This document shows positions 9,103 through 58,381 of a DNA stretch of 64,000 bases, in pieces. Within the stretch, counting starts at the first letter, position 1. Every line of letters starts with the position of its first letter. The DNA comes from Hyphomicrobiales bacterium (lineage in GTDB: Bacteria > Eisenbacteria > RBG-16-71-46 > SZUA-252). The notes beneath the pieces are model-generated. The model was not told where the DNA came from, searched no databases, and saw only the letters and a list, made by a program, of their open reading frames with translations. The translations under genes were made by a program, and so were the position numbers. Location: assembly GCA_050257555.1 (NCBI GenBank), contig JBLMXB010000029.1:7174-71173 (forward strand). The letters are read 5' to 3'.

Positions 9103-10007
9103 CGCACGATGCCCCGCTCCGAGCTCCGGACGAACTCCACGAACTCGTGGATCTCGGGATACGGCTTCAGATCGCGGGTAATCCGGTCGAGCGCCTGCGA
9201 GACGTTCAGCTGCGAGCGGTAGAGGATCCGGTACGCGCGTTTCAGCTCGAGCCTCGCGTCGGCCGTGATCCCGCGCCGCTCCATCCCGACCGTGTTGAGG
9301 CCGCACGCCCGGAGCGGGTTCCCCGCCGCCTTCACGTACGGCGGCACGTCCTGCGGGACGCGCGAGCCGCCGCCGAGGAAGGCGTGGCAGCCGATCGCGA
9401 CGAACTGGTGGATGGGCGTGAGCCCCCCGATGATCGCGTAGTCGTCGACGCGCACGTGGCCGGCGAGGTTCACCGCATTCGCGAGGATCACGTGGTTTCC
9501 GATCCGGCAATTGTGCGCCACGTGCGTGTACGCCATGAGGAGGACGTCGTCGCCCACGATCGTGCTCTCCCCCTCGCTCGTGGCCGCGTGGACCGTCGCG
9601 TACTCCCGCACGGTCGTGTCGCTCCCGATCCGCACGTGCGTCGGCACGCCGCGGAACTTGAGGTCCTGGGGGATGTTCCCGATCGCCGCGCCGTGGTGGA
9701 TCTGGCAGCGCGGGCCGATGACCGTGCACCCCTCGATGATCGCGTGCAGCCCGACCCGCGTCCCCTCGCCGAGCACGACGCGCGGTCCGATGTACGCGAA
9801 CGGGCCGATCACCACCCCGGGGCCGAGCTCGGCGCCCTTCGCGACGATCGCCGTCGGATGGATCGAGGGACGGGCGCGCTCCGCCGACTCCGGGAGCGCC
9901 ACCACCGCCCCGGCCACGCGGGCCCAGGTGCCGGTGAGGCCGTCCGCCTCAGGAATTGCGGTCGACAATGCTGGAAAGGAGCTCTGCTTCCGCGACGAGG
10001 TCTCCAT
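9099..10007 (-). CDS. lpxA: Acyl-ACP--UDP-N-acetylglucosamine O-acyltransferase
   Basis: Left-handed beta-helix hexapeptide repeats; IHPTAIVAKGAELGPGVVIGPFAYIG…. The ATG at 10007 overlaps lpxC-fabZ by 59 nt. Alternative GTG starts at 9917/9905/9902 would give a more typical N-terminus. Confidence 0.85.
   Translation of the reverse strand: METSSRKQSSFPALSTAIPEADGLTGTWARVAGAVVALPESAERARPSIHPTAIVAKGAELGPGVVIGPFAYIGPRVVLGEGTRVGLHAIIEGCTVIGPRCQIHHGAAIGNIPQDLKFRGVPTHVRIGSDTTVREYATVHAATSEGESTIVGDDVLLMAYTHVAHNCRIGNHVILANAVNLAGHVRVDDYAIIGGLTPIHQFVAIGCHAFLGGGSRVPQDVPPYVKAAGNPLRACGLNTVGMERRGITADARLELKRAYRILYRSQLNVSQALDRITRDLKPYPEIHEFVEFVRSSERGIVR

Positions 10008-15471: not shown

Positions 15472-15475
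<4 letters not shown>
12986..15475 (-). CDS. bamA: Outer membrane protein assembly factor BamA (Omp85)
   Basis: This is the C-terminal 829 codons of ORF 12986..16960. It has a signal peptide, POTRA-like repeats (VIRAIRASGFRNVD…, VQSVEFEGAKKI…, KVRGIEIHGA…), an Omp85 barrel and the C-terminal HFQLGNTF. The TTG start at 15475 overlaps the clpC stop (TTGA). Confidence 0.85.
15329..15358. repeat. 15-bp tandem duplication inside the bamA signal-peptide coding region
   Basis: cgcgaccgcgaggca occurs at 15329-15343 and again at 15344-15358. It encodes ACLAV-ACLAV in the hydrophobic core of the signal peptide. Confidence 0.8.
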
Positions 15476-17889
<2,414 letters not shown>

Positions 17890-17924
17890 GGATGGAACCC
17901 TCCGGCTCCCGTGGGACCCTGTGT

Positions 17925-18992
17925 CTAATTCGGGCTGACGTCGTCGCCGTCCAAGAGCTGCCGCACGTAGTCGGCGCGAACGACGTTCCGCTCCCTCTGT
18001 TCCATTTCGCGGCCGGCGAAGAGCTGCAGGTGCGCCGGCTGCGTCCGAATCAGCATCTCGTTCAGCGTCGGCACGTCGGTGAGCCCGTCCATGCGGAGGG
18101 CCACGCCGAACCGGACCGCCGAGGAGAGATTCACGACCTCCTGCGACGACATGACCCGGCTGTGCCGGAGCGCCCCGTACGCCCGCCAGATCTTGTCCTC
18201 GATCTGGACGCGGGCGTCCTTCAGGAGCTCCTCCCGGGCCTGCTGCTCGTACTCGATGATCTGGCGGGTCACGCGCTCCAGCGCGTCGACCGTCTCCCGC
18301 TCGCTCTGCCCCAGGGTCGTCTGGTTCGAGATCTGGAAGAAGTTCCCCATGATCTGCGAGCCCTCGCCGTAGAACCCGCGCACCGCGAGCCCCACCTGCG
18401 TGATCCCCTGGAGCACCTTTCCGATCTGGCGCGTCAGCACCAGGGACGGCAGGTGGATGAGCACCGAGGCGCGCATCCCCGTGCCGACGTTCGTCGGACA
18501 GGCGGTCAGGTAGCCGAGATCTTCGCCGAAAGCATAGTCGAGGTCCTCGGCCAAATCATCATCGATGGCGTTCACCGACTCCCACGCGGACCGGAGCTGG
18601 AATCCGGACGCCAGCGCCTGGAGGCGGAGGTGGTCCTCCTCGTTCACCATGAGCGAGACGCTCTCGTCGGGCACGAGGAGGAGCCCGCGGAGCCGCCCGT
18701 TGTCGGCCAGATCGTTCGAGATCAGGTGGCGCTCCACCAGGAACTGCCGGTCGAGCGGGGTGAGGTCGCGCATGGAGATCGCGTTCGTCCCCTCGAGGGC
18801 GGGCGTGTTCCGCACCGCCGTCACCGCGCTCGAGTAGACCATCGCGAGCTGCTCCTCGCGGGCGCGGTGCGTGAACGGCACGTCCTTCAGGTTCCGGGCG
18901 AGCCGGACGCGCGTCGAGAGGACGATGTCGGACGACGGGCCCGTGCCGTCGAGCCAGCGGCCGAGCGTCTGGGCGAGCGGGACGAGCTTCAT
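17925..18992 (-). CDS. mcsB: Protein arginine kinase McsB
   Basis: The ATG at 18992 (MKLVPLAQ…) has an ATGA overlap with the mcsA stop. It has a phosphagen-kinase-like core (EEDHLRLQ, TACPTNVGTGMRASV). It is 355 aa. Confidence 0.85.
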   Translation of the reverse strand: MKLVPLAQTLGRWLDGTGPSSDIVLSTRVRLARNLKDVPFTHRAREEQLAMVYSSAVTAVRNTPALEGTNAISMRDLTPLDRQFLVERHLISNDLADNGRLRGLLLVPDESVSLMVNEEDHLRLQALASGFQLRSAWESVNAIDDDLAEDLDYAFGEDLGYLTACPTNVGTGMRASVLIHLPSLVLTRQIGKVLQGITQVGLAVRGFYGEGSQIMGNFFQISNQTTLGQSERETVDALERVTRQIIEYEQQAREELLKDARVQIEDKIWRAYGALRHSRVMSSQEVVNLSSAVRFGVALRMDGLTDVPTLNEMLIRTQPAHLQLFAGREMEQRERNVVRADYVRQLLDGDDVSPN

Positions 18993-19546
18993 GACCGCTC
19001 CGATCCGCGGCCGGTGGCCGGGCCGCCCTCGGCGTCCGCCGTCCGGCCCTCCCGCGTCTCGATGGCGCGGATCTGGTCGCGGAGCGCGGCGGCCGTCTCG
19101 AACTCCTCGCGCTCGATCGCCCGCTGCATCTCCTCGTGGAGGCGCTGGATCTCGCGGCGGATCGCCACCCGGGCCGAGTCCCGCTCGGGCGTCTTGCCGA
19201 CGTGCTTGGTGCTGCCGTGGATCCGGCGGAGGAGCGGCCGGAGCTGCGTGCGGAACGTCGTGTAGCACTCGGAGCAGCCGAGCCGGCCGGTCTCGCGGAA
19301 GTTGGAGTAGACGAGCCCGCACTTCGGGCACTGGACGCGCCCGACCTTGGCCTCTTCCCCGACGCCCGCCTGATCGACCATGCCCGCCAGGAGGTCGCCC
19401 ACCGAGAACTTCGACTTGAGGAGCGGCACGTGGTACCCGCGCTCCTCCGCGCACTTCTCGCAGACGTGGTACTCGGTCTTCTTGTTGTTCACGATCTCCG
19501 TGAAATGGACGATCGCGGGTCGCTTACCGCAAAGCTGGCACTGCAT
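18989..19546 (-). CDS. mcsA: McsA-like activator (zinc-finger N-terminus + UVR motif)
   Basis: 185 aa ORF. Cys pairs are CQLCGKRP…CEKC, CPKCG…CSEC. The C-terminal UVR-type helix is EREEFETAAALRDQIRAIE. Confidence 0.8.
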   Translation of the reverse strand: MQCQLCGKRPAIVHFTEIVNNKKTEYHVCEKCAEERGYHVPLLKSKFSVGDLLAGMVDQAGVGEEAKVGRVQCPKCGLVYSNFRETGRLGCSECYTTFRTQLRPLLRRIHGSTKHVGKTPERDSARVAIRREIQRLHEEMQRAIEREEFETAAALRDQIRAIETREGRTADAEGGPATGRGSERS

Positions 19547-23087: not shown

Positions 23088-25040
23088 CTAGGGAGCGTAG
23101 CGCGGGCGGTCAAGCCTCGCGCCCGAGAGCGGAGCTTCCTCGGCCGACGGCGCGTCCTCGCGCGCGCGGCCGCACGCCGGGCAGTACGCCCAGTCGGGGA
23201 CGAGCCGGCGCCCGCAGCCGTCGCAGGCGAGCGCCGCGCGGGCGCCGCAGTGCGGACAGAAGGCGTGCTCCGAGGAGACGGTGCGATGGCAGCCGCCGCA
23301 GACGCGTCCGCCTTCGTCCTCGGTCGTGACGACCCGGGTCAGCTCCTCGAGCGTGGTCTCGCCGTCGAACACCTTCCCGAGCCCGTCCTGCCCGATCGTG
23401 ACCATGCCGGCCTCGACGGCCGCCGACCGGATGACCGCCTCGGTGGCGCCGGAGGAGACGAGACGCCGGAGCGATTCGTCCATCTCGAGGAGCTCGAAGA
23501 TGCCGGTCCGGCCGCGGTAGCCGGTCTGCGCGCAGTAGTCGCAGCCGACCGGCCGGAAGAGCGCCACGTCGCGCGCCTCCGCGCCGCTCAGGCCGAGGCG
23601 GCGGAGCACCTCGCCGGACGGCGCGTACGCGTCCTTGCACTTGGGACAGAGCGTGCGGACGAGCCGCATCGAGACGACGCCGACGAGGCTCGACGCCACC
23701 ATGTACGGGGCGAGCCCCAGGTCGACGAGACGCGTGACGGCGGACGCAGCGTCGTTCGTGTGCACGGTGCTGAGGACGAGGTGGCCGGTGATCGAGGCAC
23801 GGAAGGCGATCTGCGCCGTGTCGGCGTCGCGGATCTCACCGACCATCAGCACGTCGGGGTCCTGCCGGAGCATCGCGCGGAGCACCGACGCGAACGACTT
23901 CTTCCCCCGCTCGTCCACCTGGACCTGGTTCACGCCGGGGATCTGGTGTTCGATCGGGTCCTCGGCCGTCACGATGTTCTTCGTGACCGTGTGGATCTGC
24001 TGGAGGAGCGAGTAGAGGAGCGTCGTCTTCCCGCTCCCGGTCGGTCCGGTGACGATCAGGATCCCCTGCGGGCGGGTGCCGTAGTCCCGGATCCGCTGCA
24101 GGCACGGGGCCGAGAGCCCGAGCGTCTCGAGCCGGAGCGAGGAGCGCTCCTGGTCCGCGATCCGGATCACGACCTTCTCGCCCTGGAGCGTCGGGAGGGT
24201 CGACACGCGGAGGTCGATCCGCCGTCCCTCCGACTCGACCCGGAAGCGCCCGTCCTGCGGCATCCGCTTCTCCGCGATGTCGAGGCTCGCGAGGATCTTG
24301 ATCCGGGAGACGAGCGCTCCCTGCGTCCACTTCGGCAGCCGCTCCAGGTCCTGGAGCAGGCCGTCGACGCGGATGCGGACCGAGACCGCCTTCTCCTGCG
24401 GCTCGATGTGGATGTCGCTCGCGCGGAGCTCGACGGAGCGGGCGATCAGCCAGTTCGCGAGGCGGACGATCGGCGATCCGATGCCGAGCTTCTCGAGCTC
24501 CTCGGCCGACTCCTCCTTTACGTCCTCGACCAGCTCGCGCACCTCGCCGGCCGGGTCGTTCTTGATGATGCTCTCGAGCACCTCCACCACGGAGTCGTCC
24601 ATGTGGTAGTAGCGCGAGATCGCCTCGAGGATCTCCGTCGGCGGCGCCAGGACCGGCCGGACGAAGTACCCGCTCTGGAAGCGGATGTCCTCGAGCGCGG
24701 AGGCGTTCAGCGGGTCGGCCATCGCGACACGGATCGTGTTCCGGTTCTCGACCTCGACCGGCATCGCCACGTACTTCTTCGCCAGCTCTTCCTTGATGAG
24801 GGCGATCGCGGCCTCGTCGATCGCGATCGACGCGAGGTCGACGATCGGGAGGCCGAGCTGCTGGTGGAGGACACGACAGATGTCCCCCTCGGTCACCATC
24901 CCGGCGCGGGTGAGGATCTGGCCCAACGGCTCGCGGGTCTGTCGCTGCCGGCGGAGCGCCTCCTTGAGCTGGTCCTCGCCCAGGAGCCCCGCGTCGAGCA
25001 GGTACTCGCCGAGCTTCTTGCGACGTCCGCTGTCGGTCAC
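23088..25040 (-). CDS. GspE/PilB-family secretion ATPase with N-terminal MshEN-like domain and C-terminal double zinc-ribbon extension
   Basis: Walker A GPTGSGKTT, Asp/Walker B DPDVLMVGEIRD, His box GHLVLSTVHTN, and the tetracysteine CPKC…CDYC. The N-terminus KLGEYLLDAGLLGEDQLKEALRRQ-RQTRE-PLGQILTRAGMVTEGDICRVLHQQ fits the tandem MshEN motif. The C-terminus is CGGC…CPHC…CDGC…CPAC. I prefer the GTG at 25040 (GAGGGG about 10 nt upstream), because the TTG at 25097 would lie upstream of the predicted sigma-54 TSS. Confidence 0.85.
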   Translation of the reverse strand: MTDSGRRKKLGEYLLDAGLLGEDQLKEALRRQRQTREPLGQILTRAGMVTEGDICRVLHQQLGLPIVDLASIAIDEAAIALIKEELAKKYVAMPVEVENRNTIRVAMADPLNASALEDIRFQSGYFVRPVLAPPTEILEAISRYYHMDDSVVEVLESIIKNDPAGEVRELVEDVKEESAEELEKLGIGSPIVRLANWLIARSVELRASDIHIEPQEKAVSVRIRVDGLLQDLERLPKWTQGALVSRIKILASLDIAEKRMPQDGRFRVESEGRRIDLRVSTLPTLQGEKVVIRIADQERSSLRLETLGLSAPCLQRIRDYGTRPQGILIVTGPTGSGKTTLLYSLLQQIHTVTKNIVTAEDPIEHQIPGVNQVQVDERGKKSFASVLRAMLRQDPDVLMVGEIRDADTAQIAFRASITGHLVLSTVHTNDAASAVTRLVDLGLAPYMVASSLVGVVSMRLVRTLCPKCKDAYAPSGEVLRRLGLSGAEARDVALFRPVGCDYCAQTGYRGRTGIFELLEMDESLRRLVSSGATEAVIRSAAVEAGMVTIGQDGLGKVFDGETTLEELTRVVTTEDEGGRVCGGCHRTVSSEHAFCPHCGARAALACDGCGRRLVPDWAYCPACGRAREDAPSAEEAPLSGARLDRPRYAP

Positions 25041-25100
25041 CGCCGGTCTGCCCCTCGGAACGGGTGGGTCGTGGACGGACTCGTGTCCGCCCCCCAAGGG

Positions 25101-25115
25101 GCAAACGGCATGCCA
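25101..25115 (-). promoter_or_regulatory. Sigma-54 (-24/-12) promoter candidate upstream of the GspE-like ATPase
   Basis: The minus strand reads TGGCATGCCGTTTGC (TGGCAY-N5-TTGC). It is intergenic, correctly oriented, and about 60 nt upstream of the GTG at 25040. Confidence 0.6.
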
Positions 25116-26727: not shown

Positions 26728-27324
26728 TCACGCCGCCCGCATCGCGGGGGCCGGGTCGGCCAGAAATGCCTCGAGCTCGCGCCACGCGAGCGGCGTCCCG
26801 ATCGCGAGCGACGCCTCCGCGTGCGGATTGACCAGGAGCCCGCTCCGCGTCCCGGTCACCGGGCCGACGGCCTCGTACGCCTCGGCCGCCGCCTGGTCCC
26901 CCGCCGGGCCCCGCGTCCAGAGCCACCAGAGCCGCGCCCGGCGGATCGCGCCCAAGCCGGCCAGCGGATGCTCGCGGCGGAGGCGGGCGAGGAGCCCCTC
27001 GTCGCGCGTGTCGTCGCGCGGCCGCACCAGGATCCCCCAGGCGCCCTCGGGCGGGGCGAGCGACGCCCCGCGCTCCGCCGCCGGGAGGAAGCGGTACCGC
27101 TCCTTGTTTGGATTCACGAAGAAGTTGCTCGACTCGATCGCGAGGGCGAGCGCCGGCTCGAACGCGTCGGACGCGGCGCCCGCCTCGGGCGTGAAGAGGA
27201 AGAGATCCTCCCGCACGAGCCGGTCGATCGCGTGCCCCGGCGGCAGGAGCCGCCGCGCCGTGTCGAGCGCGGTCAACGCCGTGAGGTCGGCGATCTTGAG
27301 CCGGGTCAGGAGCACCGCGCTCAT
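26728..27324 (-). CDS. Hypothetical protein, candidate tandem (duplicated) PurS-like FGAM synthase subunit
   Basis: 198 aa ORF between purQ and purF. The two halves each end in a PurS-like segment (…SSNFFVNPNKERYRF and …RSGLLVNPHAEASLA). No separate ~80 aa purS ORF is seen in the cluster. The assignment is by eye only. Confidence 0.45.
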   Translation of the reverse strand: MSAVLLTRLKIADLTALTALDTARRLLPPGHAIDRLVREDLFLFTPEAGAASDAFEPALALAIESSNFFVNPNKERYRFLPAAERGASLAPPEGAWGILVRPRDDTRDEGLLARLRREHPLAGLGAIRRARLWWLWTRGPAGDQAAAEAYEAVGPVTGTRSGLLVNPHAEASLAIGTPLAWRELEAFLADPAPAMRAA

Positions 27325-37354: not shown

Positions 37355-37382
37355 AGTATAGAAAGCGTCGCGGCGAAATCAA
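37355..37382 (-). promoter_or_regulatory. Sigma-70-type promoter candidate for the oxidoreductase-lnt transcription unit
   Basis: The minus strand reads TTGATT-N16-TATACT, an AT-rich island in a GC-rich intergenic region about 60 nt upstream of the GTG at 37292. The -35 overlaps the stop of the sigma-54 activator gene. Confidence 0.45.
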
Positions 37383-38500
37383 GGCCAATCGCCCGGAGCG
37401 TCGTCGGCGCGCGGCGTCGCGCCCGCGCCGTCGGCGTCGTCGTCGAGCGGCCCGGCGGCGTCGGCGCGAAGGCGGCGGAGCTTCTTCCAGAGTCCCTGGC
37501 GCGTGAGCCCGAGCGCGCGGGCCGCGAGCGTGCGATTGCCGCGGTGGTGCGCGAGCGCGCTCCGGATCAGCTCGGCCTCGTACGCGCGCGTCCGTCCCCG
37601 GAGCGTCGCGCGGTCGCGCGCCACGACGACGCGCGGACCGTCCCCCTCCTCGCCGAGCGCGTCGGGCCCGATCACGCCGCCCTCCCCCGCGACGTGCGCC
37701 GCCCGCGTGAGCGCCGCCTCGAGCTCCCGGACGTTCCCCGGCCAGTCGTGCGCGGCCAGCCGGTCGAGCGCGTCGCGGCGCACGCCCCGGATCCGGATCC
37801 CGTCCCGAAGCCCGATGCGACCGAGCAGGTGCGCCGCGAGGAGCGGGAGGTCCTCGCGCCGGTCGCGGAGCGGCGGCACGTCGAGCGCGAGCACGTGGAG
37901 CCGGTAGTAGAGGTCGGCACGGAAGCGTCCGGCCCGCGCCTCGCCGGCGAGGTCGCGATGCGTCGCGGCGACGATCCGGACGTCGACCGTGCGCGCGCGG
38001 CCGTCGCCGACGCGCCGCACCTCCCCCTCCTGGAGCACGCGGAGGAGCCGGCTCTGCACGGAGGCGCTCGCGTCGCCGATCTCGTCGAGGAAGAGGGTGC
38101 CCCCGTGCGCCAGCTCGAAGAGGCCGGGGCGGTCGGCGTGCGCGCCGGTGAACGCGCCGCGCGCGTGGCCGAAGAGCTCGCTCTCGACCAGCGTGTCGGG
38201 GATCGAGGCGAAGTTGTGCGGCAGGAACGCGCGGTCGGCGCGGCGGCTCCGCGCGTGGACCGCCCGCGCGACGAGCTCCTTGCCGGAGCCGGTCTCGCCG
38301 CGGACCAGCACGGTGGCGTGGCTCCGCGCGTGCGCGGTCAGGCGCGCGCCGAGCCGGAGGAGCGCCGGGCTCGCGCCGACCAGTCCGAGCGCCGCGTACG
38401 GGCCGAGGCCGGCGGGCGCGAGCGCCTCGAGCGGCACGACCGCGCCTTCCCTTTGCGCGACCGCCGCCGGTCCCGCGTTTCGTTCGTCGCGCTCCGCCAC
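37379..38500 (-). CDS. Sigma-54-dependent transcriptional activator lacking an N-terminal sensory/receiver domain (PspF-like architecture)
   Basis: 373 aa ORF. The AAA+ core begins at about residue 50 (VLVRGETGSGKE). The GAFTGA loop is present (HARGAFTGA), with WPGNVRELE and a C-terminal Fis-type HTH (NRTLAARALGLTRQGLWKKL). Confidence 0.85.
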   Translation of the reverse strand: MAERDERNAGPAAVAQREGAVVPLEALAPAGLGPYAALGLVGASPALLRLGARLTAHARSHATVLVRGETGSGKELVARAVHARSRRADRAFLPHNFASIPDTLVESELFGHARGAFTGAHADRPGLFELAHGGTLFLDEIGDASASVQSRLLRVLQEGEVRRVGDGRARTVDVRIVAATHRDLAGEARAGRFRADLYYRLHVLALDVPPLRDRREDLPLLAAHLLGRIGLRDGIRIRGVRRDALDRLAAHDWPGNVRELEAALTRAAHVAGEGGVIGPDALGEEGDGPRVVVARDRATLRGRTRAYEAELIRSALAHHRGNRTLAARALGLTRQGLWKKLRRLRADAAGPLDDDADGAGATPRADDAPGDWP

Positions 38501-38524: not shown

Positions 38525-39550
38525 CTACGCGCCGAGCAGCCGCACCTCCCGCGTCCCGGCCACGATTCCGCCGACGCGATGCGCGCGGTGCCCCTCGCGG
38601 GCGAGCGCGTCCTCGATCGCGTCGGCGTCGCCGCCGCGCGCGACGAGCAGGAGCCCGAGCCCCATGTTCCAGACTTCGTACGCCTCCGCGTCCGCGACCC
38701 GTCCCTCGCGGCAGAGCGCGCGGAAGACCTCCGGCACCGGCCACGCGCCGAGCCGGATCTCGGCCGCGACGTGCGGCGGCAGGACGCGCACCAGGTTCCC
38801 CGGGATGCCGCCGCCGGTGACGTGCGCCATGCCGCGCACCTCGCCGGCCGCCCGCGCCACCGCGACCGGCGCGCCGTAGTACGGATGGGGCGCGAGGAGC
38901 ACGTCGCCGACGGTGGCCGCGAGGCCCGGGAAGGGGTCGCCGACGCCGAGCCCGAGCGTGTCGAACAGGATCCGCCGCGCGAGCGAGTAGCCGTTCGTGT
39001 GGAGGCCGACGCTCGGCAGCCCGAAGACGACGTCGCCCGGCTCGATGGCGGCGCCGTGGATCAGGTCGCGCTCGTTCGCGACGCCGACGATCGCGCCCGC
39101 GAGGTCGTAGTCGTCCGCGGCGTAGAGGCCCGGCATCTCCGCGGTCTCGCCGCCGATCAGCGCGCAGCCGACCTCGCGACAGCCGCGCGCGAGCCCGGCC
39201 ACCAGCGCCTCCACCCGCTCCGGGCGGAGCGCGCCCATCGCGATGTAGTCGAGGAAGAAGAGCGCCCTCCCGCCGTGGACCAGGATGTCGTTCGCCGAGT
39301 GGCAGACGAGGTCGTAGCCGACGGTGTCGTGCCGGTCGCAGAGGATCGCGACCTTCACCTTCGTCCCGACACCGTCCATGCTGGAGAGGAGCACCTGCCC
39401 CGGCGCGCCCGGCATGCGATACGCGCCCGCGAAGAGCCCGACGTCGCTCAGCACGGCGTCGCCGAACGTGCCGCGACAGAGGTCGCGGATCCGGGCGACC
39501 GCCTCCTCCCCCTTCCGGATGTTGACGCCCGCCTCTTCGTACCGGCTCAT
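38525..39550 (-). CDS. purM: Phosphoribosylformylglycinamidine cyclo-ligase (AIR synthetase)
   Basis: ATG at 39550 (MSRYEEAGVNIRKGEEAV…) with an ATGA overlap with the HD-GYP gene stop. DGVGTK and GGETAEMPG motifs are present. It is 341 aa. Confidence 0.92.
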   Translation of the reverse strand: MSRYEEAGVNIRKGEEAVARIRDLCRGTFGDAVLSDVGLFAGAYRMPGAPGQVLLSSMDGVGTKVKVAILCDRHDTVGYDLVCHSANDILVHGGRALFFLDYIAMGALRPERVEALVAGLARGCREVGCALIGGETAEMPGLYAADDYDLAGAIVGVANERDLIHGAAIEPGDVVFGLPSVGLHTNGYSLARRILFDTLGLGVGDPFPGLAATVGDVLLAPHPYYGAPVAVARAAGEVRGMAHVTGGGIPGNLVRVLPPHVAAEIRLGAWPVPEVFRALCREGRVADAEAYEVWNMGLGLLLVARGGDADAIEDALAREGHRAHRVGGIVAGTREVRLLGA

Positions 39551-40929
39551 CGCACGGCCTCGAGCGGCGCGGGCTCGCGCGGCTCCGGCGCGGGCCGGGC
39601 GGACCCGTCCGGCTCCGGCTCGCGCCAGACCGGGAGCGCCCCCGCCTCGTGGAGGGAGACGAGCGCCTCGACGATCTCGGGATCGAACTGCGCGCCCGCG
39701 TGGCGCCGGAGCTCGCCGAGGGCGCGGTCGACCGGCAGCCCCCTCCGGTACGGGCGGTCCGACGTCATCGCGTCGAACGCGTCGCACGCGTGGATGATCC
39801 GGGCCCCGAGCGGCACCTCGTCCTCGGTCAGCCCCGGCGGGTAGCCCTTCCCGTCGGGACGCCAGTGGTGCGTGCGCACCATAAGGGCCGCGTCCCGGAG
39901 CGAGCGGATCTGGCCCACGATCAGGGCGCCCGCCTCGGGGTGGCGCATCATCACGCGGCGCTCCTCCTCGTCGAGCGCGGTCGGCTTCCGGATCACGTCG
40001 GGGCGCTGCGCGATCTTCCCGATGTCGTGGACGAGCGCCGCGTAGTGGATCGTCTCGACCTCGGATTCCGGGAGCGCGAGCCACCGCGCCACGCGGACGG
40101 CATAGTCCGCGACGCGGACGGAGTGCTCGTGCGTGTAGGGGTCGACCGCGTCGAGCGCCACGCTCAGCGCGCGGACGAAGGAGACGAGGTCCTCCTTGAG
40201 ATCGGCATAGAGGCGGAGCGCGTACCGCGCGAGGAAGAGCGGCACCACGAGGAGCACGATGCCGGGGATGCCCGCGGCCATCCGCACCTGCGCGAAGAGG
40301 AGCCCGAACCCGATCGCGAGGAGGTGCTGCGGCAGTCCGTCGCGGAACTGCTGGCGCCAGATCGTCTGCGCCGCCTCGCGCGTGCGCGCCCCCAGGACCA
40401 GGCTCACCCATCCGGTGTTGAGCGCGTAGTAGAGCGCCCCGGCCAGGAGGATCGGTCCGAAGGCCGCGAGCGTCGGCGCGCCGAGCGCGCCGCCCGCGGC
40501 GAGGTACGCGCTCCCCGCCAGGATCGTCGTGGAGGCGTAGAGCCCCGCGTTCAGCGCCGCCGCGCCCGGCCGCTGCCGGAGGAGGAAGAGCTGCGCGGGG
40601 ATCGTGGTCAGGAGGTCGAGCGCGCCCGCGATCCACGGTCCGAAGAGGAGAATCGCCGCGACGTCGAGCACCGACGCGATCGTGATCGTCCCGCCGCGCG
40701 GCAGCGGGACCGGGAGCGCCTCCGCGACCAGGAGCAGCACGAACCAGACGCCGATGCCGATCGGATCGACGCGCGTCTGCTTCACCTCGGGGCCGCCGAA
40801 GAGCGCGAGCAGCACGGGGAGCGCGGCGAGGAAGGACGGCACCAAGACCCAGGCGGCGCGCGACGCGAAGCGCCTGGCCCGCGCGGCGTCCGGCGGCTCG
40901 GGGAGCGGCGGCGACGTCAGGACCGGCAT
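39547..40929 (-). CDS. Membrane-anchored HD-GYP domain protein (putative c-di-GMP phosphodiesterase)
   Basis: A polytopic N-terminal ~250 aa is followed by HD-GYP: HEHSVRVA, ALVHDIGKI, HHWRPDGKGYP, CDAFDAMTSDRPYR. I prefer the ATG at 40929 (GAGGG upstream), because the TTG at 40980 lies inside the sigma-54 promoter motif. Confidence 0.82.
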   Translation of the reverse strand: MPVLTSPPLPEPPDAARARRFASRAAWVLVPSFLAALPVLLALFGGPEVKQTRVDPIGIGVWFVLLLVAEALPVPLPRGGTITIASVLDVAAILLFGPWIAGALDLLTTIPAQLFLLRQRPGAAALNAGLYASTTILAGSAYLAAGGALGAPTLAAFGPILLAGALYYALNTGWVSLVLGARTREAAQTIWRQQFRDGLPQHLLAIGFGLLFAQVRMAAGIPGIVLLVVPLFLARYALRLYADLKEDLVSFVRALSVALDAVDPYTHEHSVRVADYAVRVARWLALPESEVETIHYAALVHDIGKIAQRPDVIRKPTALDEEERRVMMRHPEAGALIVGQIRSLRDAALMVRTHHWRPDGKGYPPGLTEDEVPLGARIIHACDAFDAMTSDRPYRRGLPVDRALGELRRHAGAQFDPEIVEALVSLHEAGALPVWREPEPDGSARPAPEPREPAPLEAVR

Positions 40930-40976: not shown

Positions 40977-40991
40977 GCAACCAGTGTGCCA
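40977..40991 (-). promoter_or_regulatory. Sigma-54 (-24/-12) promoter candidate upstream of the HD-GYP/purM/activator operon
   Basis: The minus strand reads TGGCACACTGGTTGC (TGGCAC-N5-TTGC). It is intergenic and about 48 nt upstream of the ATG at 40929. Confidence 0.6.
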
Positions 40992-51796: not shown

Positions 51797-54700
51797 TCAG
51801 AAGTCCGCGCCGAACGTCACGAAATTCTGCGGCCTTCCGACCCCGCCGTTCAATTTGAACTCCCGCCCGTAGTCGTAGCGGAGGATGAAGTAGCCGAGGT
51901 TGACGCGGGCGCCGAAGCCCCAGGCGAGGTGGAGGTTCTCCGTGTGGAGTCCGCCGGCGGTCGAGAAGAAGACCGGGTCCGTCCCCTTCTCCCACGCCGT
52001 CGCGCCGTCGAGGAACATCACCCCGTTGAAGCCGCCGAGGCCCAGGGAGAGCGGCCAGCCGAGCCGGAGCTGCTCGATCAGCGGGAAGCGGAACTCGAGG
52101 TTCCCGATCAGCGCCCGCGTCCCGACGAGGTCGCCGTAGTCGGCGCCGCGGTACGTGAACGCGCCGCCGAACCGGAAGAGCTGCGGATCCCGCCCCCACG
52201 AGCCGCCGGCGATCAGCCGCTGCGCGAGGGCGTACCGGTGGCGGATGTTGGTGTAGCGCCGCCAGTCGAGGATCCCCGTCGTGTAGTGCACGTCGCCGAT
52301 CGCGTGCTCGAGCGAGTACCGCGAGCGGCCGCCGTTGATCGGCCCCGTGGAGTTGTACAGCGTGTTGTCGGCCACGAGCCCGATGTTCGGCGCCACGTAG
52401 AAGAAGTCACCGTTGTTCTGGAGCGTCGAGATCGTCCCCAGGTCGTAGTTGTACTGGAGCACCCGCTCGCTGATCACCGCGGACGTGATGCCGTACTCGA
52501 ACCGCCGGAACCGGTTGAACGGACGCGCGAAGAAGATCGACCCGCCGCGGTAGATCTGGCTCTCCACGTTGTCGCTCGACGGCGCCGACAGGAGCAGGAG
52601 GTCGTTCCGGTACTGGAAGACCGCGAGGCCCCAGTTCGTCCGGTGCGCGAGGTTCGAGTACGCGAGGTAGATGTCCGACTGCGAGAGGTCGCCGTAGAGG
52701 TTCAGGACGGCCAGGATGTTCCGGTTGCCGAGCACGTCGCTGAACGAGATCACGCTCGAGCCCGCGAATCCGATGTTCGAGGCGAAGAGGGCGCCGCCGC
52801 TCACGTAGTCGCGCGAGAACTTCGCCTTGTACGGCAGGCGCACGAACGACGTGCTGTCGGCGAGCGGCTCGCGATAGACCTCCCGGATGTACGTGCCGAG
52901 CGTCGTGTCGATCACCGCCCCGCTCGAATCGGCCGGCGTCGCCGCCCGGACCCGGAGCGCCGCGGAGGTCGCGGCGCCGCCCGAGGCGCTGTCGGCGGCC
53001 GCGGAATCCGCGGGGGCGTCGCCGCCCGACGTCGCGACGGAATCGGCCGGGGCGGCGGGCGCCTCGTCCGGCGGGGCGGCGGGCGCCTCGTCCGGCGGGG
53101 CCGCGGCGAGCACCGACGGCATCAGCCCGCTCGATGCCTCCTGGGTGCCGAGCGGCGCAAGCGAGCCGATCGCCCCCGGCGCGAGGTCCTGGTCGGCCAG
53201 GATCATCGTGACCGGCGCGTTGATGAACTTCCGCGGCTCGCGCACCGAGTAGATGTCCCACCCGCCGCGCGTGAAGGCCGTGAAGAGGAGGCGCTTCCCG
53301 TCGGGGGAGAGCGAGATGCACGGCGCGTTCGGCACGAGCCCCGAGACGCCGTTCAGCAGGTTCGAGAGGCGGTAGGAGTCGGCCGTGGCCAGGTCGAGCC
53401 GGTAGATGTTCGGCGTCCCCGAGCGGTCGGAGACGAAGACCAGCGACTTGCCGTCGGGCGTCCACTGCGGGGAGAAGCTGGATCCGCTCTGCTTCGGCAG
53501 GACCCGGACCTCGCCCGTGGTCATGTCGTAGAGCGCGAGGCGGAGCTTGCCGAAGATCAGCCGCTCGGGCTCCGTCCCGGCGCCGCGGTCGGTCGTGAAC
53601 GCGATCGTCCCCCCGTCCGGCGACCAGGCAGGGTCGCGGTACGAGTACGGCCCGCCCGCGAGCTCGCGGAGATCCTTCCCGTCCGCGCCGGCGACGTAGA
53701 GCGCGGACATTCCGTTCTTGAGCCCGACGAACGCGATCCGTTTCCCGTCCGGCGACCAGGCCGGGGAGTAGATCGCGTCGAGCCCGAAGCGGAGCTTCCG
53801 CTCGATCTTCCCCGACGGGATCCCGATCACGTAGATCGCGTCCTCGGGGCCCGACTTGACCGGGAGCGCGATCTCCTTCTCGTCGGGCGCCCAGGCGATG
53901 GAGGAGTCGAAGTAACGGAGCGTCTCGTACGTGCCGGTCCGCTCCCCCGACACCAGCTTCTTGAACACCTTCCCGTCGAGGGCCGACGCGAGATAGACGT
54001 CGTTGTACATGCTCCGGTCGGAGATGAAGACCATCTGGAGCCCGGACGGCGACACGGCCGGCGCGACGTTGAAATCGGAGAGATCGTGCTCGGAGTCGGT
54101 CAGCTTCGAGGCGATCACGTCGGGCTTGTCGCTGTCCGCGATCTGCGGCAGGTACTGCTTGCGCACCGCCTCCTGCCACTTCTTGGAGAGCACGTCGACG
54201 GTCAGGCCGGTCGACGCCTCGAGCGCCCGCTCCGCGCTCCCCATCCGCTTCGTCCGTTTCAGGATCTCCCCGATCTTCTCGATCCCGTACGTGTCGGCGA
54301 TGAACTGCCAGATCGACTGGCCGAAGCGATAGACGCGGAGATCGCCGACGTACGACAGGACCCCGATCGGGATGAGGTACCCCTCGAGCGAGGCGTCGCG
54401 GAGCCACATCTGCGTGTTCGTGTCGATCTCGCCGACCGACAGGTACTCCGCCATCCCCTCCATGAACCACCCCGGCGGCGCGTTGGCGAAGGGGTTCGAG
54501 ACGAGACCGCCCCGGTCGCCGAAGAGGATGTCGACCTGGAACGCGTGCACCAGCTCGTGGGTCAGGACGTGGTCGAACTCCGCGAAGTCGCCGGTGAACG
54601 GCAGGAAGACCCGCCGCTTCAGGTACTCGGTGATCCCGCCCGTGCCGAGGCTGATCAGCTCCGGCGTGATGTTCGTCTGCTCGAAGTCGGAGTGGGACGC

Positions 54701-55024
54701 GTAGAGGACGAGCGGCACCCGCTCCCGGATGTCGTGGTGGAGCACGCGGCTCAGCCGGTCGTACGCGCGCTCGGCCATCAGCGCGGCGTCCTGCACCGCC
54801 GCCTCGGTCCCCGTGTAGTGGTAGATGTCGAAGTGCTGCGTGCGCAGCACCTTCCAGTTGAACTTCTTGTACTGGACCTTGTTCTGGCCGAACCACTGCG
54901 CCTCGGCGCGCGGCGGCGCCGCGGTCGCGAGGAGCGCGGCCAGCGCGAGGAGCACGACCCACGCGGCGCGGGCGCGTCCGCGGGGCGGACGGGACGGGAG
55001 CTGCCGGTCTCGCTGTCGCATCAT
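51797..55024 (-). CDS. Giant outer-membrane protein A: HExxH peptidase-like domain + TolB/PD40-like beta-propeller + Omp85-type beta-barrel
   Basis: 1075 aa ORF. It has a signal peptide (…ATAAPPRAEA), HELVHAF plus EGMAEY, repeated PAWSPDGKRIAF / PAWSPDGGTIAF / PQWTPDGKSLVF / LSPDGKRLLF, an Ala/Pro/Ser linker, a C-terminal barrel (LEFRFPL, FLDGATAW, GFGARVNLGYFILRYDYG) and a terminal F. Confidence 0.8.
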   Translation of the reverse strand: MMRQRDRQLPSRPPRGRARAAWVVLLALAALLATAAPPRAEAQWFGQNKVQYKKFNWKVLRTQHFDIYHYTGTEAAVQDAALMAERAYDRLSRVLHHDIRERVPLVLYASHSDFEQTNITPELISLGTGGITEYLKRRVFLPFTGDFAEFDHVLTHELVHAFQVDILFGDRGGLVSNPFANAPPGWFMEGMAEYLSVGEIDTNTQMWLRDASLEGYLIPIGVLSYVGDLRVYRFGQSIWQFIADTYGIEKIGEILKRTKRMGSAERALEASTGLTVDVLSKKWQEAVRKQYLPQIADSDKPDVIASKLTDSEHDLSDFNVAPAVSPSGLQMVFISDRSMYNDVYLASALDGKVFKKLVSGERTGTYETLRYFDSSIAWAPDEKEIALPVKSGPEDAIYVIGIPSGKIERKLRFGLDAIYSPAWSPDGKRIAFVGLKNGMSALYVAGADGKDLRELAGGPYSYRDPAWSPDGGTIAFTTDRGAGTEPERLIFGKLRLALYDMTTGEVRVLPKQSGSSFSPQWTPDGKSLVFVSDRSGTPNIYRLDLATADSYRLSNLLNGVSGLVPNAPCISLSPDGKRLLFTAFTRGGWDIYSVREPRKFINAPVTMILADQDLAPGAIGSLAPLGTQEASSGLMPSVLAAAPPDEAPAAPPDEAPAAPADSVATSGGDAPADSAAADSASGGAATSAALRVRAATPADSSGAVIDTTLGTYIREVYREPLADSTSFVRLPYKAKFSRDYVSGGALFASNIGFAGSSVISFSDVLGNRNILAVLNLYGDLSQSDIYLAYSNLAHRTNWGLAVFQYRNDLLLLSAPSSDNVESQIYRGGSIFFARPFNRFRRFEYGITSAVISERVLQYNYDLGTISTLQNNGDFFYVAPNIGLVADNTLYNSTGPINGGRSRYSLEHAIGDVHYTTGILDWRRYTNIRHRYALAQRLIAGGSWGRDPQLFRFGGAFTYRGADYGDLVGTRALIGNLEFRFPLIEQLRLGWPLSLGLGGFNGVMFLDGATAWEKGTDPVFFSTAGGLHTENLHLAWGFGARVNLGYFILRYDYGREFKLNGGVGRPQNFVTFGADF
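53049..53100. repeat. 24-bp tandem duplication (about 2.2 copies) in the linker of giant OMP A
   Basis: ggggcggcgggcgcctcgtccggc occurs at 53049-53072 and 53073-53096, followed by a partial third copy. It encodes PPDEAPAA twice. Confidence 0.85.
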
Positions 55025-56332: not shown

Positions 56333-56830
56333 TCAGCGCGTCAGCGCCTCGTTCCGCTGCTCGACCAATTCGGCGATCGTCTCCGTGATGCCGCGGAGCT
56401 CCGCCAGCGTCATCTCGAACCGCTCGTCGTGGACGTACGCCTTCTCCAGCTCGTGCACGGTCGCGTGCAGCTGGTCGAGGGCCTCGACGATGCGGCGGTC
56501 GTAGCCCGACGCCGCGTCCACCGCGTCGTCGCTCAGCGCGCTCTTCTGCGCGGGCGACGCGAGCGGAATCGAGTCGGCCAGGAACTCCAGCTTCCGGGCC
56601 CCGGCGTCCACTTCCTCGAGCAGGTCGGAGTAGTCCTCTCCGAACTGATGGCTCTCGATGCGCTCGAGCCGGTGCGCCTCGCCGGCCAGATGCTCGGCGA
56701 TCGAATGGCGGAACCGGCGGTCGTCCTCGCGGCGCTGCGCCAGCTCCTGATATCCCTTGTAGCCCGGAACCCGGCGCGCGATTTCCTCGACGGCATCGAG
56801 CGTGGCGAGCTTCTGGCGGGTGCGTGGCAT
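56333..56830 (-). CDS. Hypothetical all-helical 165-aa protein
   Basis: ATG at 56830, with AGGAGGA beginning 15 nt upstream of it (8-nt spacer). The acidic, heptad-like sequence is …EEIARRVPGYKGYQELAQRREDDRRFRHSIAEHLAGEAHRLERIE…. The GTG at 56959 would add an Arg-rich extension, which I consider leader. Confidence 0.6.
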   Translation of the reverse strand: MPRTRQKLATLDAVEEIARRVPGYKGYQELAQRREDDRRFRHSIAEHLAGEAHRLERIESHQFGEDYSDLLEEVDAGARKLEFLADSIPLASPAQKSALSDDAVDAASGYDRRIVEALDQLHATVHELEKAYVHDERFEMTLAELRGITETIAELVEQRNEALTR

Positions 56831-57026: not shown

Positions 57027-57041
57027 GCAACGCGTGTGCCA
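57027..57041 (-). promoter_or_regulatory. Sigma-54 (-24/-12) promoter candidate upstream of the 165-aa gene/alaX/OMP A/PAP2 unit
   Basis: The minus strand reads TGGCACACGCGTTGC(A), i.e. TGGCAC-N5-TTGCA. It is 18 nt after the stop of the lipoprotein gene. The predicted leader to the ATG at 56830 is about 185 nt. Confidence 0.6.
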
Positions 57042-57058: not shown

Positions 57059-58381
57059 TCACGGGCGGTACGTCACCAGCCGGTACGGTCCGCCGAGGAG
57101 CGCCGATCTCCGAAGCACGACCCCCGCCGGCGAGACCTCGAGGAGGCGGTCGGACTCGAGATCCGCCACCCAGCAGGTGCCCGTGGCCGGGTCGAGCGAG
57201 AGCCCGTACGGTTCGATGCCGGTCAGGGTCGCCTGGATCTGCCCGCCGAGCGCCACGCGCGTGAGCCGCCCGCTCCCGGCCCCCGGCGCGCCGCGCTCGC
57301 TCACCCAGAGCGAGCGGGTCGCGGGATCCACCGCGAGATCGACGACGCCGATCCGCCCGGTCGTGACCGGCGTGCCCGGGTCGGGATCGCCGGCGACCAC
57401 GTAGTAGAGGTCGAAGAGGTTCGGCGCCGAATGCGAGGCGACCCACGCGGCGTCCGCCGCCTCGTCCACCGCGATCGCCACCACGCCGCCCGGGAGCTGC
57501 CACGAGTTCCGGTGCGTGCCGTCGCCGCTCGACGCCTGCACGACGAGCCCCTCCTGCGTTCCCACCCAGACCGTCGCGTTCGCGTTGTCCGTCGCGACCG
57601 CGACCGGATGCTGCCCCGCGACCGACACCGTCGCCGCCGACGTCGGCTGCGTCGTGTCGGGCAGGAAGCTGACCACCTGTCCCACGTCGTACCGCGTGAC
57701 CCAGGCCAGGCCCCGCTGCGTGCTCACCGAGAGCGTGCTCGGGCCGAGCACGTCGATCGTCGGCCCGACGGTCGTGCCGTCGAACCGGCGGCGCTCGACC
57801 GCGTCGAGGTCGTAGTGGCTGAGCCAGAACCAGCCGCGGACGGGATCGAGCGCGACGTCGTCGTACGCGTCCTTCGACGCGATCGTGTAGAAGAGGTCGC
57901 GCGCGTCGGCCGTCAGCGCCGCGTACCCCGGCGGGTCGATGGTCAGCGCCGCGAGGCGGAGCGTGCCCGGCGTCGCCGTGTCGGGCGCGCTCGCCGCGCT
58001 GTCCCCGGTCGCGAAGACCGCGATCAACCGGTAGACGTACGTCGAGTCGTTCGCGACGTCGAAGTCCTCGGTCGCGCCGACGGTCGCCGGGAAGATCGCG
58101 CCGGGCAGGAGGAGCGGCGTCCCCCCCGGCCGCCACCGCTGCACGTGGTAGCCCTCCACGCCGTCGAGGGTGAGGATCGGCCAGCGGAGCTCGACGACGC
58201 CGTCGGACGCGAGCGCGTCGAATCCGACGAGCATCCCATGCGTCGTCCGGTTCCGCGGATCGAGCGGGTTGTCGCGGGCGCGCTTCGCGCAGCCGCCGGC
58301 CAGCGCGGCGAGGAGGAGCGCCAGGACCGCGGCGGCCGCGACGGCGGAGCCGGGACGGCGCGGCGGGGTCACGCGGTCCAC
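57059..58381 (-). CDS. Lipoprotein with Ig/FN3-like domain and NHL/beta-propeller-like repeats
   Basis: 440 aa ORF with a GTG start at 58381. The lipobox is LAALAGGC. Repeated …WV(A/T/S)… blades are present (GLAWVTRYD, ATVWVGTQEG, DAAWVASHS, RSLWVSERG, GTCWVADLES). Confidence 0.6.
   Translation of the reverse strand: MDRVTPPRRPGSAVAAAAVLALLLAALAGGCAKRARDNPLDPRNRTTHGMLVGFDALASDGVVELRWPILTLDGVEGYHVQRWRPGGTPLLLPGAIFPATVGATEDFDVANDSTYVYRLIAVFATGDSAASAPDTATPGTLRLAALTIDPPGYAALTADARDLFYTIASKDAYDDVALDPVRGWFWLSHYDLDAVERRRFDGTTVGPTIDVLGPSTLSVSTQRGLAWVTRYDVGQVVSFLPDTTQPTSAATVSVAGQHPVAVATDNANATVWVGTQEGLVVQASSGDGTHRNSWQLPGGVVAIAVDEAADAAWVASHSAPNLFDLYYVVAGDPDPGTPVTTGRIGVVDLAVDPATRSLWVSERGAPGAGSGRLTRVALGGQIQATLTGIEPYGLSLDPATGTCWVADLESDRLLEVSPAGVVLRRSALLGGPYRLVTYRP

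Follow-up and report, generated by a model that had tools for sequence, protein, structure and literature searches.

A PilB/GspE-class ATPase with a predicted c-di-GMP-binding front end and a conserved C-terminal double zinc ribbon, encoded away from pilus genes in an Eisenbacteria contig

The window analysed here is a stretch of 64,000 nucleotides (contig JBLMXB010000029.1) from a bacterium of the Eisenbacteria. It has a G+C content of ~72%, and nearly all of its genes lie on the minus strand. Within a co-directional run of housekeeping genes it encodes a 650-residue ATPase that is composed, from the N to the C terminus, of an MshEN domain, the full ATPase core of the PilB/GspE type, a double zinc ribbon (DZR) of 43 residues and a tail predicted to be disordered. 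The gene is preceded by purF and followed by lysS, lolE, lolD, mcsA, mcsB, clpC and bamA. An earlier reading made from the letters of this DNA (the sequence-only reading) had named purF and lysS as the neighbours and had described the gene as lacking flanking pilus or type II secretion system (T2SS) genes. The window gene scan agrees with both statements, as none of the genes scanned in the 64 kb is a pil or gsp gene; the remaining genes were judged by eye only. Public collections hold an identical protein (P0001), and the best named relative (P0002, 87% identity) comes from a metagenome-assembled genome of Candidatus Eisenbacteria. The source databases label the proteins of this family PilB or a generic T2SS/type IV pilus ATPase.

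The longest open reading frame around the gene (23088..25097, minus strand) begins with a TTG codon. TTG 25097 was rejected as the start, and GTG 25040 is likelier in view of a sigma-54 element, a Shine-Dalgarno sequence and the motif numbering. The sigma-54 element at 25101-25115 sets the transcription start at ~25090, downstream of the TTG, and thus argues against initiation at this codon. A GAGGGG Shine-Dalgarno sequence lies ~11 nt 5' of GTG 25040. Counting from this GTG, the residues of the cyclic di-GMP (c-di-GMP) motifs carry the same numbers as those of Vibrio cholerae MshE.

The N-terminal motif pair consists of motif I (K9-Q32), a spacer (R33-E37, RQTRE) and motif II (P38-Q61), giving an arrangement of 24 + 5 + 24 residues. 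The NCBIfam c-di-GMP motif domain NF053729 matches at 58.9 bits (cut-off 38) over 53 of its 53 profile positions, and Pfam MshEN (PF05157) covers residues 62-150 with an E-value of 1.6e-23. The NF053729 match bears out the MshEN-type motif pair proposed in the sequence-only reading. AlphaFold2 predicts helices at residues 10-16, 22-35, 39-45 and 51-62. Residues G11, L14, L39, G40, G47 and Q61 are invariant in the homologues, and the conservation is at least 90% for L25, Q32, L43 and L58 and at least 89% for L10. The set of ligand contacts (L10, G11, L25, L29, Q32, L39, G40, L54, L58 and Q61 in MshE numbering) is kept in full with I54 replacing L54, and positions 29 and 54 are always hydrophobic (L, I or V) in the homologues. 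None of the loss-of-binding substitutions of XpsE occurs in this protein.

Comparison with the strict published pattern showed deviations of motif II at P38, T44, M48 and I54. Position 1 is not an arginine in either motif (K9 in motif I and P38 in motif II). The sequence-only reading had correctly listed K9, P38 and T44 as deviations, but its claim that there were no others does not hold for M48 and I54. Under the relaxed pattern of the discoverers of MshEN (PMC5013675), T44 is the sole deviation. Position 44 is a core residue that varies in the family (A, V, S, I, M or T). The GSPII-B domain of Thermus thermophilus PilF, with K and L at position 1, binds c-di-GMP at 6 nM, and its GSPII-C domain, with P at a position 1, binds it at ~460 nM (PMC11731258). 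Thus, K9 and P38 are not disqualifying. The retention of the contact residues, the lack of XpsE-type loss changes and the occurrence of K and P in proven binders lead to a strong prediction that the N-domain binds c-di-GMP. The subsequent MshEN_C/T2SSE_N1 subdomain aligns with V. cholerae MshE (PDB 5HTL) and with the GSPII domains of PilF. Its equivalents dock GspL/PilM-type partners in characterised relatives.

The ATPase core is matched by Pfam T2SSE (PF00437) with an E-value of 8e-127 (423 bits against a cut-off of 24.9). All the motifs that the sequence-only reading had assigned to a complete core were located, namely the Walker A motif (GPTGSGKT, G332-T339), the Asp box (EDPIE, 360-364, with E360, D361, P362 and E364), the Walker B motif (DPDVLMVGEIRD, D394-D405), the His box (HLVLSTVH, H420-H427) and the two CxxC pairs of the tetracysteine zinc site in the C-terminal domain (CTD). 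The family alignments show no change at these four cysteines (C465, C468, C500 and C503), and nearly all residues of the catalytic motifs are likewise invariant. Such a site is present in PilB and GspE and absent from PilT. The AlphaFold2 model of the full protein has a predicted local distance difference test (pLDDT) score of 82. Foldseek superimposes its core on PilF (PDB 5OIU) and PilB (PDB 5TSG) with template modelling (TM) scores, normalised to the target, of 0.93-0.94 and an r.m.s.d. of 2.1-2.2 Å, and the identity to the solved PilF and PilB proteins is 44-46%. The protein is presumably a hexameric motor ATPase of the PilB/GspE class, as judged from these matches. It scores under the cut-offs of both equivalog models, with 581 bits for PilB (TIGR02538, cut-off 675.65) and 570 bits for GspE (TIGR02533, cut-off 630.25). 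A search for core residues specific to the subfamily defined below returned none at strict thresholds. At loose thresholds, ~7 core positions (e.g., Q325, F413 and W238) separate the subfamily from ordinary PilB-like proteins, and no functional inference was drawn from this set.

The eight cysteines of the DZR are arranged in four pairs (C581/C584, C595/C598, C606/C609 and C620/C623). Pfam DZR (PF12773) matches at 30.8 bits, above its gathering cut-off of 27.3, and finds 52 of the 58 subfamily proteins (57 representatives and the window protein) at E ≤ 1e-5. The eight cysteines together with G599, W617 and G624 are invariant in all 117 full-length homologues, at identities down to 55%, and the eight cysteines and the tryptophan are still invariant in 50 diverse tails of 25-58% identity. 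The above-threshold Pfam score and the invariant cysteines confirm the extra C-terminal double zinc ribbon of the sequence-only reading. The invariance of the eight cysteines and the tryptophan among proteins that are only 37-49% identical overall argues for selection on the tail itself. The DZR has pLDDT values of 71-84 in the full model and of 82 when modelled alone, with predicted short beta-hairpins. Past the DZR the column conservation is low, and residues 632-650 have pLDDT values below 50.

An origin of the tail by frameshift, read-through or chimeric assembly, which the sequence-only reading had itself considered, has next to no probability. The reading frame is unbroken with a third-position G+C content of 0.95, and the architecture recurs in 117 of 117 homologues, taken from many independent assemblies, and in 57 distant representatives. 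The conservation data exclude the artefact, and no point was found in its favour.

The closest solved relative of the DZR by profile is an archaeal ribosome-associated Zn-ribbon protein with four CxxC knuckles (PDB 9FNY, E-value 8e-4). Structure comparison gave only sub-threshold matches, in which halves of the tail overlay RanBP2/NZF-type fingers at 0.8-1.0 Å over 25 residues. Fingers of this type bind proteins or single-stranded RNA. The same four-CxxC layout with the same tryptophan occurs in stand-alone bacterial proteins of 60-93 residues. By these resemblances the DZR is a small, portable putative zinc module, with no function transferable from its relatives.

The spread of the extension, which the sequence-only reading had left to be determined, was surveyed in the best 150 matches, with one representative per 50%-identity cluster. 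The 8-Cys module directly follows the ATPase in 57 of these 150 representatives and is therefore not a one-off. Among the 57, a receiver (REC) domain follows the DZR in 31, and a GAF domain with an HD-GYP domain (HD_5) in one. The others end soon after the DZR, like the protein described here, or run on without a Pfam domain. A neighbour-joining tree built from 262 ATPase cores places all 123 DZR-positive sequences within one clade of 192, which also includes 65 C-terminally extended and four ordinary proteins. The tail is found in none of the 70 sequences outside this clade. As judged from the survey and the tree, the DZR tail defines a large and widespread subfamily that is distinct from ordinary PilB-like proteins. 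The taxonomy of the distant members rests on a few NCBI labels; labels among the relatives are Eisenbacteria, Latescibacteria, Bacteroidota, Udaeobacter and Limnocylindria, and binning errors may lie behind some of them. A separate clade of PilB-like proteins of ~1000 residues (P0123-P0133, P0143, P0154 and P0162) forms the deepest branch of the tree; its members have a 450-residue C-terminal extension with two matched stretches and no DZR.

The MshEN-T2SSE-DZR(-REC) subfamily is apparently undescribed. Within the searchable library, full-text searches found no paper linking MshEN, PilB, GspE or T2SSE with a zinc ribbon, and no paper describing pili in Eisenbacteria. In a 2024 review of PilB regulation, the zinc motif of the CTD is the only zinc feature mentioned.

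The genomic surroundings of the subfamily were compared with those of 80 ordinary PilB-like loci (38-47% identity), which were taken from the matches listed in a generic Walker A-pattern genome scan. None of these matches has a zinc-ribbon tail. The most recurrent neighbour family at the control loci is T2SSF (PilC/GspF), as verified with Pfam. Among the matches listed, T2SSF lies within 10 kb of the ATPase gene at 67 of 80 control loci vs. 0 of 11 DZR loci (Fisher p = 5e-8). Thus, the orphan status is a trait of the whole DZR subfamily and not of one locus.

These results bear on the simplest alternative, that the gene is a displaced pilB or gspE encoding the sole extension ATPase of a scattered type IV pilus or T2SS, with the DZR as a mere lineage decoration. 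The 44-46% identity to PilF and PilB, the intact motifs and the name PilB given by the source databases are all in keeping with this explanation. Pilus genes are also dispersed in some bacteria. However, a mere decoration is hard to match with eight cysteines and a tryptophan that stay invariant at 37-49% overall identity, and with a tail that is regularly followed by a receiver domain. The scores under both equivalog cut-offs also speak against it. Planctomycetota, Omnitrophota and Acidobacteriota are represented among the ordinary PilB-PilC loci in the matches listed, which counts against a displaced pilB without demonstrating paralogy. A displaced pilB is therefore considered improbable.

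The synteny of the window is kept at loci L001 (87% identity) and L003 (74% identity). The sister clade (55-59% identity) has another, likewise conserved context, in which a GAF-GAF-SpoIIE phosphatase gene lies divergently upstream; three of the four loci have an HD-GYP gene that overlaps the stop codon of the ATPase gene. The HD-GYP gene is translationally coupled to the ATPase gene in L005, L006 and a contig from JGI. The genes of distant members lie between ribosomal-protein and pyrimidine genes, or next to histidine kinases (HKs) and small PilZ proteins. In L007, FHA-GAF-HK and REC-HK genes follow the ATPase gene. A receiver-fused relative without a DZR (L093) lies inside a REC/HK operon. 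Small PilZ genes with weak Pfam hits were observed up to 5 kb upstream of the DZR-REC ATPase genes in L007 (7431-7724) and L091 (5295-5693), which are unrelated contigs. PilZ proteins are cofactors of PilB in Xanthomonas and Pseudomonas.

Such contexts would also suit a signalling ATPase that acts independently of a pilus, in which c-di-GMP and, in the relatives, receiver phosphorylation would set an ATP-driven switch with its output through the DZR. Possible partners would be the co-encoded HD-GYP phosphodiesterase or two-component proteins. We regard this explanation as the main rival of the one preferred below and as a possibility to be taken seriously, though a rather unlikely one. It would account for the lack of T2SSF, a second ATPase or any other pilus gene at 12 of 12 loci, vs. 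the presence of T2SSF at 67 of 80 ordinary loci among the matches listed, and for genes that are operonic or fused with HD-GYP, HK and REC. The scores below the PilB and GspE cut-offs point in the same direction, and a precedent exists in the reported role of Myxococcus xanthus PilB in exopolysaccharide regulation (PMC5544727). However, the subfamily keeps its ATPase core together with the N1D docking subdomain and the tetracysteine site, and it has very few residues of its own, which would be unexpected had the mechanical substrate changed. The receiver and HD-GYP fusions can equally be read as inputs to a motor, and no conserved neighbour points to another substrate. A broader form of this idea is that the DZR and DZR-REC ATPases constitute a separate class of c-di-GMP- and phosphorelay-controlled motors detached from any type IV filament or T2SS, with a new substrate or partner engaged via the DZR and possibly a feedback module formed with HD-GYP phosphodiesterases; we consider this class assignment doubtful.

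The preferred explanation, held at roughly even confidence, is that the protein is a signal-integrating alternative motor of the PilB class, gated by c-di-GMP and by a partner of the DZR, with its platform encoded elsewhere, and that it is not the housekeeping pilus motor. The MshEN four-helix bundle with its two-motif c-di-GMP site would be the front-end sensor. By analogy with MshE, PilF and the PilB proteins of Chloracidobacterium and Myxococcus, occupancy of this site may alter the ATPase activity or the engagement of a partner. The core is essentially the same as in true pilus and T2SS motors and would do mechanical work of the same sort, with a PilC/GspF-type platform encoded at another place in the genome as its most probable counterpart. 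The DZR is predicted to bind two zinc ions and could act as a rigid adaptor where the CTD ends. It would carry a phosphorylatable receiver in cis in the relatives, and the receiver-less protein described here may use it to dock a regulator in trans. The 44-46% identity, the retained N1D and the ~7 distinguishing positions suggest that the mechanochemistry is unchanged and that the kind of partner probably is too. All additions to the motor are regulatory, namely MshEN on the N-terminal side and, on the C-terminal side, the DZR alone or joined by REC or HD-GYP. The genes of the subfamily lie in signalling operons or as single insertions in housekeeping surroundings.

Several points weigh against the alternative-motor explanation. 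The complete lack of linkage to pilus genes and the signalling-operon contexts fit a non-pilus output equally well. The tail had no significant structural match in the PDB (best E-value 0.09). The internal branches of the tree are very short (0.001-0.007) and carry no support values, and its sample is enriched for receiver-fused forms, as a protein of this kind served as the query of one search.

PilB/GspE ATPases are usually seen as dedicated motors of pili or type II secretion. The subfamily joins an intact motor to a c-di-GMP site predicted with high confidence, a strictly conserved zinc module and, in about half of the members, a receiver. Of the 50%-identity clusters closest to the protein described here (best 150), the subfamily accounts for more than one third, and the plain database label PilB hides the distinction. 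As alternative motors, the proteins would show how second-messenger and phosphorelay signals reach the dynamics of filaments. A subfamily that has left the pilus altogether would instead represent a c-di-GMP effector of a new type, in Eisenbacteria and other lineages of which few members have been cultured.

The element TGGCATGCCGTTTGC upstream of the ATPase gene matches the sigma-54 consensus, with GG at -24, GC at -12 and a 10-nt spacing (TGGCAC-N5-TTGC). The window has three matches to the pattern TGGCAY-N5-TTGC, where 0.05 would be expected, and all three are intergenic and on the coding strand. The element occurs once each upstream of the orthologues in L001 and L003, at 44-60 nt from the start; the rest of these spacers aligns poorly. 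The excess over expectation and the conservation in both orthologues uphold the sigma-54 promoter candidate of the sequence-only reading. The element is absent upstream of the sister-clade genes. There, a CCGATAAC/TCC motif was observed ~50 nt before the start codon in L005 (~9930-9950), L006 (~9945-9960) and L009 (~9945-9960); standing where the sigma-54 element would, it may be a -10-like promoter element of that clade. A protein with Sigma54_activat and HTH_8 domains is encoded in the window (37379-38437), and rpoN does not lie in the 64-kb window. At the 3' end of the ATPase gene, the sigma-70-like promoter of lysS overlaps the last codons, and the poorly conserved C-terminal residues of the ATPase are thus partly shaped by the promoter. 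No terminator was found 3' of the gene, where the predicted folding of the spacer does not exceed that of shuffled sequence, and an Rfam scan of the window gave no riboswitch or other RNA family.

Table 1. Positions of the ATPase gene, its parts and the promoter elements in the window
Feature	Position	Strand	Basis or location
ATPase gene MshEN-T2SSE-DZR, 650 aa	23088..25040	minus	Open reading frame, codon-model gene call, Pfam, NCBIfam, database protein matches
Ends of the ATPase gene	start GTG 25038-25040; stop codon 23088-23090	minus	
MshEN_N four-helix motif pair, aa 9-61	24858..25016	minus	NF053729, conservation, AlphaFold2 helices
MshEN_C/T2SSE_N1 subdomain, aa 62-150	24591..24857	minus	Pfam MshEN PF05157
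N2D + CTD ATPase core, aa 189-569	23334..24476	minus	Pfam T2SSE, Foldseek, invariant residues
DZR, aa 581-623	23172..23300	minus	CxxC-x10-CPxCG-x6-CxxC-x7-W-x2-CPxCG; Pfam DZR, conservation, pLDDT
Variable Ala/Pro/Glu-rich C-terminal tail, aa 624-650, predicted disordered	23091..23171	minus	Low conservation, pLDDT
Sigma-54 -24/-12 element TGGCATGCCGTTTGC	25101..25115	minus	61 nt upstream of the GTG start
Second perfect sigma-54 element TGGCACACTGGTTGC	40977-40991	minus	48 nt upstream of a membrane HD-GYP (HD_5) gene
Third sigma-54 element TGGCACACGCGTTGC	57027-57041	minus	Just past the stop of gene 57059-58381
Sigma-70-like promoter of lysS, TTGACC-17-TAGAAT, 10/12 matches	23113-23085	minus	Overlaps the final codons of the ATPase gene and its stop

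The two further sigma-54 elements stand elsewhere in the window. On the 3' side of TGGCACACTGGTTGC lie, on the minus strand, the HD-GYP gene (39547-40929), a PurM-like gene of the AIR-synthase family (38525-39550) and the sigma-54 activator gene (37379-38437), whose product consists of AAA+ and HTH_8 alone with no receiver domain. This string may be an autoregulated unit tied to c-di-GMP. The HD-GYP gene was considered as an orthologue of the coupled HD-GYP gene of the sister clade and rejected; the HD domain alone aligns (39-43%) and the N-termini differ, so that any link between the two appears weak. The element TGGCACACGCGTTGC lies ~200 nt upstream of a gene for 165 residues (56333-56830) with no Pfam match.

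Other genes of the window were noted in passing. A minus-strand block at 15472-19546 encodes a McsA-like UVR protein, a McsB-type ATP:guanido phosphotransferase (arginine kinase) and, by eye, ClpC. It adjoins bamA, ompH and, again by eye, lpx genes, as in a diderm-type organism, although Firmicutes are the main group from which the McsB system is known. The arrangement is kept in L001 and L003, where the ClpC-like gene has Clp_N and AAA Pfam hits. Between purF and purQ, at the place expected for purS, lies an open reading frame of 198 residues with no Pfam match (26728-27324, minus strand), which occupies the same place in L001 and L003 and may be a divergent or duplicated PurS. Two large minus-strand genes (51797-54955 and 59281-62088; 1052 and 935 residues) encode products with similar N-terminal motifs (GQNKVQYKKF and GKNKVQYESF) that may be paralogues. 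PD40 beta-propeller repeats and a weak match to MA peptidases were detected in the 1052-residue product.

The arrangement of the N-terminal half closely resembles that of V. cholerae MshE, the extension ATPase of the MSHA pilus, which likewise has MshEN followed by T2SSE with complete ATPase motifs and which is matched over residues 6-145 in the PDB sequence search (5HTL, E-value 1.2e-18). In MshE, the two 24-residue motifs with their 5-residue spacer occupy the same residues (9-32 and 38-61). However, both MshE motifs begin with arginine instead of K9 and P38. MshE has no C-terminal zinc-ribbon tail and belongs to the MSHA type IV pilus system, whereas the gene described here has no pilus neighbours. 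Fusions of PilB-like ATPases with signalling modules were catalogued by Wang et al. (2016), including REC-MshEN-T2SSE (Gmet_3473), GAF-MshEN-T2SSE (Glov_1971) and MshEN-T2SSE-cNMPbind (DP2226), and the authors noted the association of MshEN with REC and HD-GYP. These fusions are comparable to the present subfamily, but their REC and GAF domains are N-terminal. Supplementary Table 4 of that study lists no DZR and no MshEN-T2SSE-DZR(-REC) protein, and the words 'zinc' and 'DZR' appear nowhere in the supplement. The DZR itself shares its spacing, with four CxxC knuckles in ~45 residues, with Pfam DZR proteins and those of PDB 9FNY and 6SW9. In comparison with the small proteins of the 9FNY type, the module is here fused to the C-terminus of a motor ATPase.

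The best solved relative of the whole protein is T. thermophilus PilF (PDB 6F8L, 5OIU and 8PKZ), with 518 bits, 46% identity and a core TM score of 0.93. PilF is a proven motor of pili and DNA uptake and shares the tetracysteine zinc site. However, it has three N-terminal GSPII domains and no DZR, and it ends at the equivalent of residue 572. The PilB proteins of Geobacter, Myxococcus and Chloracidobacterium (PDB 5TSG, 5ZFR and 3JC8) are 44% identical and have the same N1D-N2D-CTD layout. The PilB N-terminal domain is reported to bind c-di-GMP (PMC6957770), and for M. xanthus PilB the reported role in exopolysaccharide regulation is one of signalling (PMC5544727). These PilB proteins stop directly after the CTD, whereas the protein described here continues into the DZR.

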